A DNA stretch of 64,000 nt from Octopus vulgaris (lineage: Eukaryota). This document shows, piece after piece, positions 1,056 to 62,566 of the stretch. The stretch is taken from the NCBI GenBank assembly GCA_951406725.2, contig OX597818.1, forward strand, positions 67,456,001 to 67,520,000, read 5' to 3'. A program made the position numbers and the translations under genes. Below the pieces are notes generated by a model. The model ran no database searches. It was given only the letters and a program-made list of their open reading frames with translations, and had not been told where the DNA came from. The stretch's first letter is position 1, and every line of letters begins with the position of its first letter.

Positions 1056-4000
1056 GGATGTTCCCTGGGAGCCTCTCTCCAAAAAACGAATTTAATCCAA
1101 CAACATCGTTGCAATGGAAGAAAGGTTCCACAAAATATATTTTCCAAACTTTCTTTTAAGGCAAAGTAACCAAAAAAGTCCGAACTATTATTGCCATATA
1201 TAGTATGGTTTTCTTTCTTTTATGCATAATAATTCCATGTGACATGCATAAGAAATAGAAGCGAACATCAGAGCTCTTGAAAGACAGTAAGTACATAAAT
1301 TAATTAATTAATTAATTAATTAAATAAGTATACATGCAACTGTTTATGCATACACGTAGACATTTTAATTGTAAAGTATACATGCAACTGTTTGTGCATA
1401 CATGTACACATTTTAATTATAAAGCATAAATAATGCATACACGCGCTCACACGTACACACAGAAAAAAAAACCACGTTACGCGGACGAAAACAAAACAAA
1501 AACAAAGCGATTTTTCACGAACAAACGCAAAAAAGAGCAAATTGGTCACTGAATTTAGAAAGTCACTGAACAGTTATGCCCGGAAACATGACTACCAAAA
1601 TAAATAGAGGCGAATTTCGATCTGTAAGTCTTATGCGAGTTCGATATGAACAATATATTAATTCGGAGAATTCAGAAGCGGTGTCTTGTCAAAAAATTGA
1701 CCCTGTACAAACACTCCCTTCTTCTAACGACACCGTCACAGAGGCGGCGTCTTGTCAAAAAGTTGACTCTGAAAAAATGGACCCCTCTGATGTCGCCGTC
1801 AATCATTTAATGAAAACAAGCCAAAAATCATGCCGGATCGGTCATCGCCCGGGACAACAAGGACCGCGTTACCCAGTAGGGAACCAGACTGGGGTCGAAA
1901 AGTTTGCTGCTGGAACAAACTCTCAAAAAGACGATCTACCAGGTGACCAGAACCAGAATACTTCTAACTCTGGACTTGTAGTGACACCACCAAAAACACC
2001 ACCTAAAGCAAAACGTATAAAATGGACCAGAGAGGACTATAGAGATGTGTTGAAAGCTTTTTATACAGCCCAACTAAACCCAAGTAATAACCTCAGTGTA
2101 CAAACATACATCTCATGGAGACATTCAGTAGGCAATGACGTACGTAGATATATAGACGCAAATAAATTAAGTAATGTACGCAGAGATATAATTAAAAACA
2201 AAAGACTAACTGACGCTGAAATTGACAAAATTAGGACACTGATAGCTCATGGTAGACCAAAAGAAAACAGCAACAATGTAGACAAAATAGGTAACAGTAG
2301 CACAGAAGCCAGTGTACAAGCGGCAAATCAACTTCCCAATGGGGAAGTTAAACAAAGAATAGCGAAGACGAGAGATTTGAAAACAGAGGAGAACGTAGAC
2401 CTTCCTCAAGAAAACCAAAATAGATATGACATAGAATTTGAGGTGAATAATAGAGAAAAGATTATGGAAGCAAAAGTGGACATTATGAGAGAACTCGGCA
2501 AGATTGAGCTCACTGAGATGGTTAATAGAGAACCACTACCAAAGTTTTCAAATGGCACAAGAAATAACAACACAATCATGACATATAACGTTGCCCTAGG
2601 ACAGATCTTAAGAAATACGGGGAATGATTTGATAACCTTAAATAATCTCATTTATTCCACTGCTAAAGTAGTAACTACCCAACTAGGTATTAAGATGACA
2701 AAGAAAAAGGCCAGGCATGTCAATGAACCTCCTAAGTGGAAAGTAGCGATACAAAAAGAGATTGAATCTCTGCGGGCGGATGTTTCAGTTCTCGATGAGC
2801 TTGCTAGAGGAGTGAATATTAAGCCGAGAAAAGCTAGAAAAATCAAGCAAAAATATAAAATCAAAGATCTCATAAACCTCCCTGCAACTAAGGAACTGTT
2901 GAAACAACGGATACAGTTGAAAGCTCAACGGCTTAGAAGGTATGACAAAAGAAACAAATTTTATCGACAAAATAAATTTTTTTAAGACAGATGCAAAGAA
3001 ATTTTATTGGGAAATTGGCAAAAATAAAATACACATAGAAGATCCACCTAAGATTGAGGAAGTGGAGGAGTTCTGGAAGAAGGTATGGAGCAACGAAAAA
3101 GCGTTTAATGCTGAGGCTGACTGGATAGAACGTGAGAAAGAGAGACTGGATGAACTTGAAGAACAGAAATGGGAAGCAATAGGAATAGAGGAGCTAAGGT
3201 GTGTCCTTAGGAAGGCTCATAAATGGAAAACCCCAGGACTGGATCGGATCCCTAACTTCTGGCTGAATTGTTTGACAGAGGTACACGAACATCTCGCTGC
3301 ATCTCTGTCTGATGTCATTCAGAACCCAGAGCAAATACCTGCTTGGCTGACTGAAGGAACCACCTACCTATTACCTAAAACCGAAGACACAAAAAACCCA
3401 AAGAATTACCGGCCAATAACATGTCTCAACACCACCTACAAAATCCTCACATCCATAATAACGGAGAGAATGTACGCTTTCCTTGAACAAAATTCTATCC
3501 TTCCACAAGCTCAAAAAGGTTGTAAAAGAAACTCTTATGAGTGCAAAGACCAATTGCTCATAAACAGAATGATTGTAGAGAATTACCGGAGCAAAAACAA
3601 AAACCTGAGTATGGCATGGATAGACTACAGGAAAGCGTATGACAGTGTCCCACATAAATGAATACTCAAGGCCCTTGAGATATACAAGATCTCTCCTGTC
3701 GTCTCAAAATTCTTAGAGAATAGCATGACCATGTGGAACACACGTCTCTTTTTAAGCCATAGTAATGGAATGAGCCAGTCCAACAGCATCAACATCAAAC
3801 GAGGCATCTTTCAAGGTGACTCCCTCTCTCCATTACTTTTTTGCATGGCACTGATCCCACTCTCAAACGAATTGGATAGTACTAGATATGGGTACAAAGT
3901 TTTTAGTAAATTAATAAACCATCTTTTCTATATGGACGACCTAAAGCTGTTTGCCAGGAATGACCAAGAGCTAGAAGGGCTGCTAACAACTGTTAAAGAG

Positions 4001-5637
4001 TTTAGCAATGATATCGGAATGGATTTTGGCCTTGATAAGTGTGCTAAAGCAACTTTTGTAAGAGGCAAGCTCAGGCAAACAGCTTCTGTTAAGTTAGATA
4101 TTGACACTACCATCAAGGAACTTGACCCACAGGAAAGTTACAAATACCTAGGAATCAACGAAGGAGATGGTATACATCATGCTACTATGAAGGAAAAAAT
4201 AAGAAAGGAATACTATAGGAGAATAAGACTTGTACTGAAGACTGAGCTCAACTCCAAAAATTGCATTGAGGCCATTAACACCCTGGCACTTCCAGTAGTC
4301 CAGTACAGTTTTAATATCATTAACTGGAACCTTACGGAACTCCAACGCTTAGACAGGAAGACAAGAAAGTTACTGACATCCAGGAGCATGCACCACCCTA
4401 AGGCAGATGTAGACCGCTTGTACCTACCTAGAAGCAGCGGGGGGAGAGGAATGATGCAATTAGAGCTGTGCTATAAGACCTCTACTGTAGGAATGAACAT
4501 GTACCTATCTAGTACAAAGGACTGGATGCTGCGACTTGTGCGCGAACACGAAAGCAGCAAAAAGCTGCATTCTATTGTCAAGGAAGCTTATAAGTTCGAA
4601 AGGGAACTAGACATTAACCTTGAATCAGATGAAGAGCCGGAAACCACTGCTACCAAGCAAGCAAAGCGAATCAAGCAGACTGCAAAAAAGAACGGGCAGA
4701 ATCAAATTGAGAGGCGGTGGAGCCAGAAGCCCCTGCATGGACAATATATTCTCCGAAGCCAAAATGCTGATGTAGACCAAGCAACAACCCATCAGTGGCT
4801 GAAGAGCTCTGGATTGAAAGCAGAGACTGAAGGTTTCATAATGGCAGCACAAGATCAAAGCTTGTTTACCAGAAATTACCAGGCTAACGTTCTCCGAAAC
4901 GGTACTGACCCTAAATGCAGATTCTGCGACACATTTGACGAAACGATAGACCATCTCGTTTCGGGATGTCCTGTGCTGACACCAAACGAATACAAAAATT
5001 GCCACGATAGGGTAGGACAGTATATACATTGGAAGATATGTAAACACTACAAATCCGACACTCCTGCTAACTGGTACGAACACCATCCTCAGCCAGTTGT
5101 TGAAGGTAAAGATGTCACCATCCTCTGGGATTTTCCAGTCAACACTGACAGAACGATCAAGGCTAATCGACCAGACATAATTGTTAAGGACAGGGAAGAA
5201 AATACCTGCAGACTAATAGAAGTAAGCGTCCCCACTGATAAAAATGTATCTGTCAAGGAATTTGACAAACTTAGTAAATATAAGGACCTGGAAATCGAAA
5301 TACAGAGGATGTGGAATCTTAAAACAAAAACTGTTCCTGTTATTGTAGGTGCCCTAGGTATGATAAAAAAGGGATGTCAGAAACACCTAGACAATATCCC
5401 TGGAAAACCATGTCTCAAGGAAATCCAAAAAATTGTGCTAACAAGTACTGCCCACATCCTTAGAAAAACCCTATCAATGTAAATGTCTGTGTTTGCATTA
5501 CATGGAGATATATCTCTACTTCCCCTCCCCAAGCTTTCAGCTGTATTTCAACAACTCTTAACCTTCACTTGCCCTAGGGCGCTGGGTGTGCCCCGGCAGG
5601 TGATTGCATCAAACATGCAGATTAAAAGTAAATGACA
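1056..5637 (+). mobile_element. R4/Dong-clade non-LTR retrotransposon (single ORF, RT plus restriction-like endonuclease), near full length
   Basis: Flanked on both sides by (AAT)n. RT motifs: PGLD, KNYRPITCL, WIDYRKAYDSVPH, GIFQGDSLSP, YMDD (3929-3940), YKYLG. C-terminal CCHC (CRFC..HLVSGC) and RLE motifs HDRV, RPDI, IEVSVP, KLSKY. Dong elements are known to target (TAA)n. Confidence 0.93.
1576..5482 (+). pseudogene. Retrotransposon polyprotein ORF (~1300 aa if repaired), broken by a +1 frameshift in the T7 run at 2977-2983 and a TGA at 3659-3661
   Basis: ORFs 1576-2985, 2942-3661 and 3725-5482 join into one ORF on deleting one T (NKFFKTD) and reading the TGA as Trp (VPHK*ILKAL). Confidence 0.88.
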
Positions 5638-11340: not shown

Positions 11341-11489
11341 CAAAATATACATTAAGTGAAAATTAAATACTATAAATAAAACTATATACATTAATTTAAA
11401 TTATTGATTAATTACTTAATCGAATAAACATCGAAATAAAATCTTATACTTATTAAGTAATTTATATTACAACCCTTCATGGTAAGTGA

Positions 11490-12072
11490 TATACATTCCC
11501 TCCGCCTTTATATAACCTACCACAGCTGCATGGGATGGAATACACGCAGTCTTTGTTCATATTGTCTTCTATTGGTGGTTTTGCTCGAAGGAGATATTTG
11601 CGAAGCGTTGTATTACACTTGAATACTGTCCTGATGTCATATGGGCCTCCTATCTTTTGTATCTTTTCAGTGAGGCCTTTGAAATAGAGTAGACAGACTG
11701 TGGATAGTTTATTGGCCTCATCCTCTCTCTTTTCCAGAATTGGAGTGGAGAGTATGCTTTTGGGGTAGTTCTTGCTTAACAGATCGTTATTGAGCTTAAT
11801 CATTTCTTTGTGGTGTGTATCACGATCGATGCTTATATACTTTGCACGATGTTTTAGTCGCTGAGCAATCCCTCTCTTTACACTGTATGGATGGTGGGAA
11901 TTGAAGTTGAAGTATCGTACAGTGAAGGACGGCTTCCCGCAAGCCGATATACGGAAGTCCCGAATCCATACTTGGTGCGTGTTTTTATTACGTCCAGGAA
12001 TGCCAGGTGATTGTCTTTTTCCTTTTCTATTGTGAGCTGTATGGGTAGATTTATTGAGTTCACATATGACAC
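11490..12072 (-). pseudogene. Penelope-like element relic: RT C-terminus, linker and start of the GIY-YIG endonuclease
   Basis: IQLTIEKEKDNHLAFLDV..FGTSVYR; RYFNFNSHHPYSVKRGI; NYPKSIL; CVYSIPCSCGRLYKG (GIY..YIG-like). Frameshifted. Confidence 0.88.
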
Positions 12073-12188
12073 GAGGAGATATTGATAAATCGGGTATAGC
12101 TGAGCATGTATGGAAAAATGGTGACCCCTCCCCGTGGGATGAAGTTAAAAAAATAGACATAGTACACCACTGAAAAATTCGAAAATTA
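12066..12188 (+). pseudogene. Inverted fragment of the PLE GIY-YIG C-terminal region
   Basis: Plus strand reads TRGDIDKSGIAEHVWKNGD..PWDEVKKID..*KIRKL, matching the S-x-I-A-E-H..W pattern of PLE endonucleases; it abuts the minus-strand piece. Confidence 0.75.
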
Positions 12189-12299
12189 ATCTGCTTTCAA
12201 AAGAATGACTAGGAAGTATTTGCGGTTGTTTGTGTATGTATAGATGTTGGGGTAGATGATGCACAATATGTTTGTAGCACGAAGCTAGAGGTTATAAAT

Positions 12300-12720
12300 T
12301 TACTCTTTACTCTTTTACTCTTTTACTTGTTTCAGTCATTTGACTGCGGCCATGCTGGAGCACCGCCTTTAGTCGAGCAAATCGACCCCGGGACTTATTC
12401 TTTGTAAGCCCAGTACTTATTCTATCAGTCTCTTTTGCCGAACCGCTAAGTGACAGGGGACGTAAACACACCAGCATCGGTTGTCAAGCAATGCTAGGGA
12501 GACAAACACAGACACACAAACACATACACATATATATATATATATATAGATATATACGATAGGCTTCTTTCAGTTTCCGTCTACCAAATCCACTCACAAG
12601 GCATTGGTCGGCCCGGGGCTATAGCAGAAGACACTTGCCCAAGATGCCACGCAGTGGGACTGAACCCGGAACCATGTGGTTGGTTAGCAAGCTACTTACC
12701 ACACAGCCACTCCTGCGCCT
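12300..12720 (-). mobile_element. tRNA-derived SINE family B with internal (TA)n/(TG)n
   Basis: Head TGGCTGTGTGGTAAG..GGGTTCAGTCCC, CTTGGGCAAGTG segment and (GTAAAAGA)n-like tail; matches copies at 44136 and 47462. Confidence 0.9.
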
Positions 12721-18857: not shown

Positions 18858-19005
18858 ACAGATCTATATTTAAGAGATGTGGAATTATGTACATTATTTA
18901 CATTATTTACATTTGACAGATACTTATCCTCATCTTGTTTGTTGTTAACGCAACATTTCGGCTGATATACCTTCCAGGCATCATCAGGTGCCTTGGGGAA
19001 ATTTG
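18858..19005 (-). mobile_element. Family D hammerhead-bearing tail (HHR at 18947-18992)
   Basis: Minus strand GGCAC-CTGATGA-TGCCTG-gaaggtatat-CAGCC-GAAA-TGTT-GCGTT, followed by the shared tail ACAAGATGAGGATAAGTATCTGTCAAATGTAAATAATG. Confidence 0.85.
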
Positions 19006-19342
19006 GAATCACAGAGTAGTGAAATTGGCCCAACACCTCTCTTGTTTTATTAGTGTCTATGCCTGCGTTAGTGACTGCTCCCGATTTGTGAGGTCTACGC
19101 TAATGCCTTATTTGTTCTTCGAGGCTGTTCTTGTTGTTTTTGCTGATATTATTGTTGATGTTGAGCGGGCTTGTTTGTTTGTTGAGCGAAGCGGTCTTCA
19201 TCCCGTCTGTAGTGGGAGGAGTCCGAAACGTGGTCCTTTGCTATTCGTAAAACCCGCAGATAAGAAAGCAGGTCAACACCCGACATCGAGAGCATCGACG
19301 GATGAATGAATGCGCATCCAGGCTCAGTGGTTGCGTAAGAAG

Positions 19343-19548
19343 TCAGGTACAAGAAACAGGAAGAAAGAGTGAGATAAAGTTGGGGCGAAAGAGTATAACA
19401 GGGGTCGCCACCACCCTTTTGTCGGAGCTTCGTGAAGCTTTAGGTGTTTTCGCTCAATAAACACACACAACGACCGGTCTGGGAATCGGAACCGCGATCC
19501 TCCGACCGCGAGTCCGCTGCCCTAACCACTGGGCCATTGCGCCTCCAC
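19343..19548 (-). mobile_element. SINE family A, 5' part
   Basis: Matches 43707-43915. Confidence 0.9.
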
Positions 19549-20075
19549 TGTAGTTGCTGGTTTTTTCGTGGGGTGATGGTGTTGTCGTTGCTGCCGTTGT
19601 TATTGATTCTGCTTCTGGTTTCGCCTCACCCCGAGCGGATAAATCTTTCGCCCTTTACTATTGTTGTTACAGTTCGGTGTACTTTGTACCATGAAAGTCT
19701 TCTTTTCTCCTCCTCTTCTTCACCTATATTGTTTCCAGTAACGAAGGGAAGGGGAAGGAATCTTCAGCCGTTACCCTATTTGAAGTAGGGGTTGTTTTGT
19801 TTTATTTCAACTCTTTCAAGACGCGCTCCGCCATTTTCTTGAGTTGTATTTGATTCAACTAAATAAACTCCAACCAAAATTATTTGTTGGCGCGAAAATC
19901 TCTCTTCTGAGGGCTAAACACCCAGAGAAAACCAGTAACATTTCCTGGTGTTTCTTGGAATAAAATGCTTATTGCCAAAAATATTAATCTTGGTGTAAAT
20001 AGATATTTTAAGCTGAATTTTTTTGGAGCGTTCGAAAACACATCCGATGTGTTCATCAGCAAATATAATAAGGAT

Positions 20076-27718: not shown

Positions 27719-27894
27719 TTACGTTATTTACATTATTTACATTTGACGAATATTTGTCCTCTTCTTATTGGTTGTTAACACGTTTCTAGTAATATAACCT
27801 CCAGCATTCATTAGGTGTCTTGGGGAGATTACGAACCTGGGTTCCCATTCCTAAAGAATTTTTCGATGTTAATATTATTATTATTATTATTATT

Positions 27895-27952
<58 letters not shown>

Positions 27953-28077
27953 CCATTATTATTGCGTAGTGGTTAAGAGCGCGTGCTACTAACCACAAGC
28001 TTCCGAGTTCGATTGCAGTCAGTGAACTGAGTAATAACAACAACAACAACAACACTAATAATAATAATAATAATGAT

Positions 28078-28138
<61 letters not shown>

Positions 28139-28238
28139 TCGAATTCCCCAAGACACCTGATGGAGGCTGGAGTTTATATCAGCAGAAACGTTGTGTTAAC
28201 AAACAAGATGAAGAGAAATATCCGTCAAATGTAAATAA
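27719..28238. mobile_element. Family D fold-back insertion: inverted partial copy (27719-27960, -) plus tRNA-headed HHR unit (27962-28238, +)
   Basis: Plus unit: GCGTAGTGG..GAGTTCGATT head, (AAT)n, then GACAC-CTGATGG-AGGCTG..CAGCA-GAAA-CGTT-GTGTT at 28152-28197. The left arm is the reverse complement of the tail. Confidence 0.85.
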
Positions 28239-30539
28239 TATGAGATTTTACTATCTAATTCCTTGATAAATATTCAGCGCCAAAGAAAGAAGTGTAGACA
28301 GGATGGCCATCACCAGAATGCATTTGTAAATATAGGTTCTCTCCCTAAAGAATCGACTGGTGACAAAATGCAACAATATAGGTCTGCCACGTGTCCCACA
28401 AGTGCAACAAACAATTCCGCGTTAACCACCTGAAAATATCAATATTCTGGAAAAATGGTATTTTATTAAATATCTTGGAATAATGGAAAATAAAAATAAA
28501 TCAGAATGAAAGAAAATGAAGGTCGAAACAGATCTCCATCGCCATTGTAATGGTCCATTGTTAGCGTTTCAAACTGCTGCTACAAATATAGCTCAGTTTT
28601 GAAATATTATTTTGATCAACATTACAGTGCCATTTTTATGTAAGGACGCACACGTGTGTGTGTGTATGCGTGTGCGTGTGTGTGTGCTTGTGTTTGCGCG
28701 TCTATGTGCGCGTGTGCCTGTGTATGTGTATGCACATATTATACAAACTGAATGATGATGATGACGATGATGATGATAATGAGAAACAATAATTGAAATG
28801 TGGATAACAACAGCTGGAGACGAGATACTAACATTAAAAGTATATTATACCGAAAATGTATAGAATTGTTCCAGAAAGAATGCTCTATAACCTTTGCATG
28901 TGACATATTAATACTTATTTTCTATACAACTGCTTATAACCAGAAGGGGAAAAAAAACAACTTCAAAGTCGTCAACACTGCTATTAACATAGTCATCGAT
29001 GATAGATCAATATTGAACTGAGCCAAAATTCAAAGCGATTCTTGCAGACAGTTCAGACAATACCAAAATAGGGTAAAGGAAACAATATATACCAAATATC
29101 AAGTATTGAATAACAATTCGTGCATTTTTGGTAAAAGGCCACATGTTTTTACAAGAAGGATCAGTCTACCACCGTAGTAGAGTGTTAGATATCTAAATGC
29201 TGTTCCATGCTAGAGTATATATTCTATAGAGATTTTAGTTAACTCGAGGGATGCAGAAGTGACAGATGCATTTGATACTGCTCATTAGAGAATCGTAATG
29301 CAGCTATAGTTATTTTCTTTTACAACGAATCAGTAATTCCTTGCATATTTCAGCGGCCACAAAAGCACAAAGTTAATATTGGCAATATTTGAAACTAGGA
29401 TCTGAAGAATAATTCTTAAATATCGGAGAGCTTTTTCTGTTCTACAAATTTTAAAGGTGTATTATTTTAAATTATATAAAGAGACAACAAAAATACGTTT
29501 ATCACCCTAGTATGAATGTAATTATTTTAAATGTTATTTCTTTCCCCATAGACTTCCTTAAAAACATTTTGATAAAATATTCTCGTTAATTTTAATTATA
29601 TACACTACAGATAATTTGTCTCCCCTTGTGAAATATAGGCACATGAAATATTTGAGTAAAAAACGACTTTGATAAAGAATTTCCGCTTCCTTTCTCTTGG
29701 CTATTATTTTGGCAAATAAGTTGTGTTAATTACATACACAGTTTTTGAAAGGAAATTTGCAAGAGACGGGAAGGTATGCACAATGGTTCCACACCGCATA
29801 ATTTGAGTTTGGGGCTGAATCAAATGTTTTGCAATATTTTGGTAACTTATTTGCTTCTTTTGTCAACTTACAAAAAAGTGCAGCCTAGTATTCAAAATAG
29901 AAGCGATTGTGTTGCACTGTGTGAGGCAACTTTTCTCTCAGTTATTTTATCCGGCTCTGATATCAGTTCTTAATTTTCGAGGCGAAGAACTACTTCACTG
30001 AAACTACCACCTCTTCTTGTGTGACCAAGTGTTTCGAAATAGTAACCAAACCTCCTTGAGGTTGCTCTTGACATCTTTAATCAAGAAAGCTATAAACTCA
30101 TTACGTAGCGATAAAATAATGCAATCTTGAACAAAAAATCTCTAAATGAGAGATGAACTGTTCACAGCTTGGTTATAACTTAGATTATTTCTATTTCTAT
30201 ATTTGTAATTCTGTTTGGTCTGGATCAAAATTGACTTGTTTCTATATAATAACACACACTCATATGTAGAAACTATTTGTCTAAACGCAGTTTTTTTCTA
30301 ACACAAACATGTTCAAGAGAATTGGTAAAAATAAATATTTCAAGTTTGAAACTCGTGATCCCTATTCTTTTTTTTTCTTTGAAGTAAGTTATGTTTATCA
30401 AGAAAAGCTCTCCCTTGTGACAATTTTCAAAAATTCGTTAATATAATTTTGAATGTATGGTGGTTATCAATATATTCATAACTGCCAATACATGGAAAGA
30501 TTTTATCTACATTATCACTAATATACTATAAATTCGCTT

Positions 30540-56326: not shown

Positions 56327-56467
56327 TCTATATTTAAGAGATGAGAAATTACGTACAATATTTACATTATTTACATTTGACGGATATTTATCCTCATCTT
56401 GTTTGTTGTGTGAACAACGAACAACATGAGATAAATATCCGTCAAATGTAAATAATGTAAATAATGA
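56327..56467. mobile_element. Family D collapsed fold-back (two inverted tail ends) nested inside a SINE C copy (~56280-56630)
   Basis: TTTACATTATTTACATTTGACGGATATTTATC..GATAAATATCCGTCAAATGTAAATAATGTAAA, with a SINE C head upstream and the SINE C body downstream. Confidence 0.8.
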
Positions 56468-62026: not shown

Positions 62027-62237
62027 CAGTTCTATATTTAAGAGATGAGGAATTATGTACATTATGTACATTATGTACATTATTTACATTATTTACATTT
62101 GCCGGATATTTGTCCTCATCTTGTTTATTGTTAACACAAAGTTCCGGCTGATATACCTTCAAGCTTTCTTCAGATGTCTTGGGGAAATTTCAAATTTGGG
62201 TTCTCATTCCTTAGGCATATTTTGATGTTATTGTTAT

Positions 62238-62289
<52 letters not shown>

Positions 62290-62352
62290 ACTACTACTAC
62301 TACTGCTACCACCAACAACACTATTACTACTACTACTATTACTTATTATTAA

Positions 62353-62400
<48 letters not shown>

Positions 62401-62566
62401 CATTCAAGTCACTGCTTGGAATCGAACTCGGAATCTCGGGGTTAGCAGCCCACGCCATTAACCACTACACCATATCCCCATGGGTATATCAGCCGAAACG
62501 TTGTATTAACAACAAACAAAACGATGACAAATATCCGTCAAATATAAGTAAAGTAAATAAAGTACA
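62027..62566. mobile_element. Family D: tRNA-headed HHR unit (62480->62027, -) plus inverted partial tail (62482-62566, +)
   Basis: Minus-strand head TGGTGTAGTGG (A box)..GGGCTGCTAACCC..GAGTTCGATTCC (B box); (AAT)n/(AGT)n; HHR relic GACAT-CTGAAGA..CAGCC-GGAA-CTTT-GTGTT at 62133-62178. The plus arm starts GGGTATATCAGCCGAAACGTTGT. Confidence 0.88.

Follow-up and report, generated by a model that had tools for sequence, protein, structure and literature searches.

What does a tRNA-like segment joined to a hammerhead ribozyme motif represent in the genome of Octopus vulgaris? The question is raised by a locus on the minus strand at 62027–62483 of a 64,000-nt stretch of DNA (hereafter the window), for which a sequence-only reading had proposed a non-autonomous SINE or retrozyme mobilised by Penelope-like elements (PLEs).

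The focal locus and its relatives in the window

The order of parts is as had been described: a tRNA-like head is followed by a spacer of trinucleotide repeats, a motif resembling a hammerhead, a series of 9-mers and a fixed end. The head of the main copy (62403–62483, minus strand), which corresponds to the UTR segment of a PLE pseudo-LTR (pLTR), begins 4 nt upstream of tRNA position +1 at 62479. Within the head, the A box (62462–62472, minus) differs by one change from the commonest state in the family, and that state fits the published TGGCNNAGTGG, while the B box (62418–62428, minus), located 33 nt after the A box, matches the published GGTTCGANNCC at 10 of 11 positions (both as given in the available text of PMC8969392). 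The expanded (TAA/TAG/CAG)n spacer (62230–62402, minus) leads to an in-frame ATG (62205–62207, minus), assigned to a PLE ORF by similarity to the N-terminus of the homologous protein P0001; in ORF-linked copies the frame runs on through the ribozyme and the tail. The minimal type I hammerhead motif (62133–62178, minus; predicted cut between 62138 and 62137) is damaged in this copy, and the remaining N-terminal segment of the ORF (62027–62132, minus) is composed of in-frame 9-mer repeats and the PLE "tail" extension of about 35 nt. An inverted, 5'-truncated partner (62482–62560, plus) extends from the stem II loop to the 9-mer repeats without the tail extension.

The (TAA)n-type spacer is reduced to 4–5 units in some family copies and is often interrupted by later insertions. 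A recurring unnamed repeat of about 600 nt is inserted there in L033, L034, L085 and L130, which suggests an element that targets the (TAA)n microsatellite. Sequence similar to an RTE-type LINE remnant of the window (1570–5482, plus, in three frames, with Pfam RVT_1 and zf-RVT) occupies the same spacer in L080, L162, L171 and L343.

The claimed recurrence of the unit at 18858, 27719 and 56327 was correct as to family membership, but the loci at 18858 and 56327 lack the head, and those at 62027, 27719 and 56327 are each a head-to-head inverted pair and not a single unit. The headless copy (18859–19008, minus) starts about 20 nt upstream of the hammerhead, the core of which is intact with a mismatch in stem II. 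The second pair comprises a body-only left arm (27724–27870, minus) and a right arm (27960–28239, plus) with the head from +6, the microsatellite, a body with an internal deletion and a mutated hammerhead core. The third (56329–56466) is a short palindrome of two tail-only copies with 5' ends near the predicted ribozyme cut site. An ORF fragment of the same PLE family, from the RT thumb to the start of the endonuclease, is located at 11503–12189 (minus); it is 83% identical at the nucleotide level to L063, retains no pLTR and includes a short inverted piece (12067–12189). Two other abundant tRNA-headed repeats in the window, at about 19280–19550 (minus) and about 12340–12715 (minus), are unrelated to the PLE family and recur in many flanks; we take them to be possibly described octopus SINEs. 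Octopus SINEs were reportedly treated by Ohshima and Okada in 1994.

The unit as part of an autonomous element

The hammerhead–tail body gave 4,368 first-look candidates in the 2.80-Gb genome, and the PLE fragment of the window (query 11480–12070) gave 7,369. In 800 kb of arbitrary sequence (80 stretches of 10 kb, from the larger contigs only), 11 family loci were found, corresponding to about 38,000–38,500 loci genome-wide (95% range 19,000–69,000); ORF sequence was absent from 10 of the 11 and present in one. The proposed linkage of head and tail held: of 30 loci selected by the body, 25 had a head match no more than about 500 nt away, in the same copy or its inverted partner. An assembly or low-complexity artefact, as might be suspected from the microsatellite-rich unit and the absence of Rfam or ARAGORN calls, is extremely improbable in view of hundreds of distinct loci in consistent order, of the reads and contigs of other runs that cover the unit and of an ORF continuous with that of an outside protein (P0001).

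Both ends of the unit connect with a PLE ORF. In L018 the end of the ORF runs straight into the head, and of 30 loci selected by protein similarity, 25 keep the ORF end; in 23 of these the sequence continues directly into the head, and in 20 it reaches the body as well. On its far side, the unit passes from the tail into the N-terminus of the PLE ORF. The apparent head-to-tail "SINE" therefore consists of a UTR and the first ~50 codons, and the unit is the pLTR of the element. It stands directly upstream of the ORF in L086, L089, L090, L098 and L108 and also follows the stop codon, as expected of a pLTR formed by partial tandems. The order in the PLE unit is thus the ORF stop, about 30 nt, the tRNA-like head, (TAA)n, the ATG, the hammerhead, in-frame 9-mers, the tail and the remaining ORF; the spacer between stop codon and ATG holds little beyond the tRNA-like segment, and the hammerhead and 9-mer tail fall within the first ~50 codons of the RT–endonuclease ORF (about 830 codons) of the next unit. 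The ATG precedes the ribozyme core by 34 nt, and the predicted cut is situated about 70 nt after the ATG, inside the ORF. In L096 and L098 the frame is open through the ribozyme and the 9-mers, and its translation can be aligned to the P0001 N-terminus (E to 1e-36; TPDEG..PKRCVNN versus TPDDG..PKRCVNN). In six further loci (L082, L089, L091, L092, L099 and L106) the sequence runs about 400–650 nt into the ORF and then returns to the pLTR body; these are internally deleted derivatives with clustered breakpoints.

The octopus ORF comprises 784 codon columns with one stop. Its protein matches Pfam RVT_1 (E 2e-10) and carries the motifs DKG and YVDD, and the translations include a CSCG..Y.GET region at the C-terminus; the Pfam GIY-YIG model gave no match to the octopus PLE translations, and three short ORF pieces gave no Pfam match. 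Identity is 55% to P0001 and 35% to the Anolis protein P0014, and each of the 46 homologues is an RT protein with the length of a PLE protein. As judged by eye from the translations, the zinc-finger linker of Neptune and Nematis is absent, and the endonuclease, in contrast to that of Naiad, is not N-terminal. In a quick tree with unresolved deep nodes, the octopus protein is placed among Poseidon-like proteins as the sister of P0001. The unit is thus the pseudo-LTR of an autonomous Penelope/Poseidon-type element and not a separate SINE. Within the Penelope/Poseidon PLEs, the candidate tRNA-type promoter segment would be what sets the octopus element apart and makes its short form SINE-like. 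This genome also contains a young PLE family of Neptune type (L215–L240; G000, many contigs), in which many ORFs of about 960 codons are nearly identical and uninterrupted and the coding strand is C/T-rich.

The link to PLEs drawn in the sequence-only reading is accordingly confirmed in a closer form than proposed, whereas its distinct non-autonomous family is lost, since head, spacer, ribozyme and tail are all parts of the autonomous PLE and no unbiased diagnostic sites separate the short copies. An independent tRNA-headed SINE or retrozyme lineage, mobilised by the PLE in trans and with only its 3' part in common with it, would accommodate the preponderance of ORF-less loci in the arbitrary sample, the defined 5' end at the head and the lack of TTTT in the unit, and has a precedent in Sm-alpha (as described in the available text of PMC6765202). 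This explanation is considered unlikely, because the head itself belongs to the autonomous element in the 23 loci noted above and because 48 ORF-linked and 67 other heads have the same commonest base at every position. The one strong skew between the two sets (head position 30, p = 0.001) is biased, being a variant of the query by which loci were picked; no unbiased diagnostic difference between ORF-linked and solo copies was found, and a separate SINE lineage is therefore not evident. A crude test for target-site duplications, which also bear on this question, gave two possible 8-nt repeats among 11 copies and no consistent pattern. Joining of the head to another SINE body was considered and rejected, as in the seven loci with a head and no body the interruption, in most cases by another element, lies within the spacer or immediately beyond it.

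The arrangement and ends of the copies are those of a PLE. In three sets of loci, inverted pairs, which have been described for PLEs (PMC8557442, in the part available), account for 13 of 29, 12 of 28 and 5 of 20, that is, a quarter to nearly half. The 3' ends fall at two places, 85 being short (within the 9-mers) and 66 long (at the fixed end) among 152; the optional 30–40 nt tail extension of Penelope/Poseidon PLEs is thus present in the octopus family, and the two-site ends match those of PAc from Anolis carolinensis in the accessible text of PMC11167929. Tandem arrays of at least two short hammerhead units were seen neither among the 11 arbitrary loci nor among those selected by body or head, and the term retrozyme in its published sense does not apply to these copies; rare arrays may occur elsewhere. 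The 83 ORF fragments differ from the column majority by a median of 5.8% and a minimum of 3.8%, from which the burst is judged to be old. Given this divergence and the retention of both boxes in only 29 of 91 sampled heads, the octopus family may now be inactive.

Head, ribozyme and transcription

The proposed tRNA-like head with A and B boxes was upheld. Its resemblance to a tRNA rests on the boxes, with the A box of the family fitting the consensus, the 33-nt spacing and one mismatch in the B box, and on alignment to the tRNAs of this genome, in which the head scored 61 against a maximum of 51 in 300 shuffles. The best partner among the six isotypes sampled was tRNA-Arg(TCG), with 47 matches in about 70 columns. 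The Rfam tRNA model and ARAGORN made no call on the head in the window, the four loci or short cut-outs. Elsewhere, seven tRNA-Cys-like genes are clustered within 3 kb in L186.

The hammerhead consensus of the sequence-only reading proved to be the commonest state per column among 146 distinct copies, although all four full-span hammerheads of the window carry defects; in the focal copy GAAA is replaced by GGAA, and stem II pairs as well as the palindrome of stem III are gone. The layout of the consensus is that of the minimal type I hammerhead as claimed, and as available in PMC4209133: a 5-bp stem I, an extra nucleotide after A9, G10.1–C11.1 and a loopless palindromic stem III. Among 145 distinct full-span copies, the catalytic core is kept in 78, together with the stems in 50 and additionally with the ACGU palindrome in 25; position 17 is U in 126. 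The stems pair in 91.6% of cells, and the variation among copies is star-like with CpG decay. Covariation among the hammerhead copies was no greater than in shuffles, which is what neutral decay of copies of a single master should produce. The Rfam hammerhead model, recommended earlier as a check, made no call on the window, the four loci or short cut-outs, and the dimeric hammerhead was not the minimum-energy form when two copies were cofolded, a result to which we attach no weight. Of 48 body 5' junctions, 12 lie within 10 nt of the predicted cut (p = 7e-4), at least three of them being deletions or doubtful matches and two joining by microhomology; these junctions weakly suggest cleavage in vivo.

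The 5' ends of head-bearing copies are sharply defined. Among sets assembled without regard to the head, 28 copies reach head position +10, and 24 of them stop at −12 to +10, compared with 9% expected from the truncation rate at +11 to +40 (p ~ 1e-21); the count is conservative, since L006, one of the rows scored as "extended", is in fact a fold-back. The same boundary at +1 is found in 27 of 34 head-selected copies and in six of seven heads of the arbitrary 800 kb, and loose ends peak at this point in sequencing runs of three organisms. The boundary is spanned by a hairpin of about −11.6 kcal/mol, and many of the 5' ends are junctions of inversions; the peak could therefore stem from a structural stop. 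An ORF of about 830 codons, moreover, normally needs a capped mRNA. These points would favour a tRNA-like segment that is a passive tRNA or SINE remnant in the UTR of an element transcribed by Pol II, with the boundary reflecting a Pol II start or stalling of the RT at the hairpin, where the inversion junctions cluster. In the same direction, the one Penelope promoter to have been dissected, in the pLTR of the Drosophila virilis element, is internal, TATA-less and LINE-like and of Pol II character (available text of PMC2377424), and Kojima points to the weak processivity of Pol III and expects Pol II to transcribe the autonomous partners (PMC10886601, in part). A passive remnant is nevertheless improbable in our estimation: seven non-inverted copies (L016, L026, L130, L152, L155, L157 and L173) also start at −8 to +8, the boxes and their spacing are canonical, the absence of T4 runs is specific to the octopus family, and the same architecture recurs in the PLE L247 described below. 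The tRNA-like segment is likely to be an internal Pol III promoter of the PLE.

As to the T4 runs, no TTTT common to half the copies occurs in 2,354 ORF columns, whereas 12 TTT sites are so shared; for this one element, the expectation under synonymous shuffling is 2.64 shared T4 runs (p = 0.036, a modest value). GGGG is likewise absent (1.1 expected). The natural copy L063 has no TTTT in 2,561 nt, and 12 long natural copies have 0–2 T4 runs each (p 0.01–0.41). No such deficit was observed in the Neptune-type PLE or the RTE-type LINE of this genome, nor in the 61 related PLE ORFs with a usable open frame, several of them near-duplicates, from 79 metagenome loci (453 runs observed versus 395.5 expected; one ORF with none). 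The T4-free ORF suggests that Pol III could read the whole unit.

Discrete transcripts, for which the earlier reading had proposed a search, did not appear in two RNA-seq runs: in the roughly 6% of each run that was searched, 9,671 and 7,013 reads mapped equally to both strands, 62–67% ran on into unlike sequence, and there was no pile-up of read beginnings or ends at +1 or the cut site. This pattern fits passive read-through and a library unsuited to discrete ends. No back-joint indicative of circular RNA was present among the joints listed when the two RNA runs were mapped on one copy.

A PLE from another host offers a second instance of the arrangement. L247 is a perfect 2,791-nt tandem on a metagenome contig (JGI1357J11328_10009043; 2828–3030 and 5619 onward), and from this perfection it is probably recent or active. 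Its spacer holds A and B boxes between the stop codon and the hammerhead, followed by a short AAT run, the ATG and the hammerhead. Boxes were found in this one of 21 distinct stop-to-hammerhead spacers (chance 0.00025); those of L247 were detected by the first A/B pattern, and a wider pattern, fitting the B box of the octopus family, was then used on the spacers. A tRNA-like match about 480 nt upstream of the ORF in L313 was not counted. Each unit of L247 contains two TTTT (3.9 expected, p = 0.19), the Rfam tRNA model gives no match to L247, and the quick tree, in which deep nodes are open, does not join it with the octopus family.

From these features, the octopus PLE probably carries, in its pLTR, a captured tRNA-like promoter of Pol III type, and most copies would be ORF-less solo pLTRs derived from RNAs that start there. 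In the proposed mechanism, Pol III would initiate a few nucleotides before head +1, and the PLE protein would prime internally about 110–170 nt past the ATG, as the Anolis PAc protein does in vitro. Use of the first priming site on a head-initiated RNA would give a SINE-like copy of about 300–450 nt, and a longer RNA, if primed at its downstream pLTR, could yield ORF-bearing copies. Inversions may result from fold-back at the 5' hairpin or from template switching, and solo copies whose boxes are intact could be transcribed again and mobilised in trans. A bolder version, which we regard as possible and put forward tentatively as rather less probable than its opposite, is that Pol III transcribes the autonomous PLE from end to end (about 2.6 kb), with a captured tRNA promoter, an ORF purged of T4 runs and internally primed SINE-like solo pLTRs, in more than one PLE lineage (L247). 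If so, it would provide a direct route to the birth of a SINE inside an autonomous element.

Comparison with known systems

The literature searched, including the available parts of PMC8967140, PMC4758252 and PMC5786205, describes neither a PLE whose pLTR holds a tRNA-like or Pol III promoter nor a tRNA SINE that depends on a PLE. Cephalopod PLE hammerheads are likewise absent from the accessible portions of the full-text literature searched, and the available text of the O. vulgaris repeat paper (PMC13282606) mentions neither hammerhead nor ribozyme. The octopus family may already be catalogued under a PLE or SINE name. Tens of thousands of octopus loci are likely annotated as SINE or tRNA pseudogene although they are ends of a PLE. 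A PLE with a tRNA-type promoter would offer a testable route for the origin of SINE-like families and of Sm-alpha-like ribozyme repeats, together with a system of defined parts for how PLE RNA is made, cut and translated.

The closest counterpart is PAc, in which the hammerhead overlaps the ORF start and the RT primes internally at two sites, 111–118 nt and about 35 nt further into the ORF (PMC11167929, in the part available). The two elements have in common a single ORF for RT and C-terminal endonuclease, a pLTR from partial tandems, a hammerhead over the ORF start and two 3' ends. In contrast to PAc as described there, the octopus UTR is a tRNA-like segment with A and B boxes, about nine-tenths of the loci are ORF-less and start at +1, and the ORF lacks T4 runs. 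The putative ribozyme resembles the minimal PLE hammerheads in being of type I with a short stem I, in the additional nucleotide between 9 and 10.1, in the G10.1–C11.1 pair and the palindromic 15.2–16.2, and in its many solo and opposite-strand copies, whereas no Pol III-type head is reported for those hammerheads in the accessible text (PMC4209133).

With tRNA-derived SINEs (SINE2), the octopus copies share A and B boxes, a length of about 300–450 nt, tens of thousands of copies and a 5' end at the tRNA-like part. They differ in that the partner is a PLE and not a LINE, the head resides inside the autonomous element, inverted pairs occur, and neither a regular TSD nor poly(A) was seen. Sm-alpha and Sj-alpha of Schistosoma similarly join a Pol III-type promoter to a type I hammerhead (PMC6765202 and PMC8490949, in part); Sm-alpha is a tandem, satellite-like, non-coding repeat for which the available text names no autonomous partner, whereas the partner of the octopus unit is the element itself. 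Non-LTR retrozymes likewise derive from PLE pLTRs, are non-coding and carry type I hammerheads (bioRxiv 10.64898/2026.07.22.740005), but they are defined as tandem arrays, with no tRNA or promoter in the portion of the text available, and the octopus copies are dispersed singles or inverted pairs. The TRIMp3 elements Cassandra, Helenus and Ajax likewise contain a Pol III promoter derived from a small RNA inside a terminal repeat (available text of PMC10886601). TRIMp3 are non-autonomous LTR elements, whereas in the octopus a PLE pLTR is concerned and the putative promoter is carried by a coding element. In the parts of the cited papers available, Pol III promoters are treated as a mark of non-autonomous elements such as SINEs and TRIMp3, and a PLE with a tRNA-type promoter would break this split.
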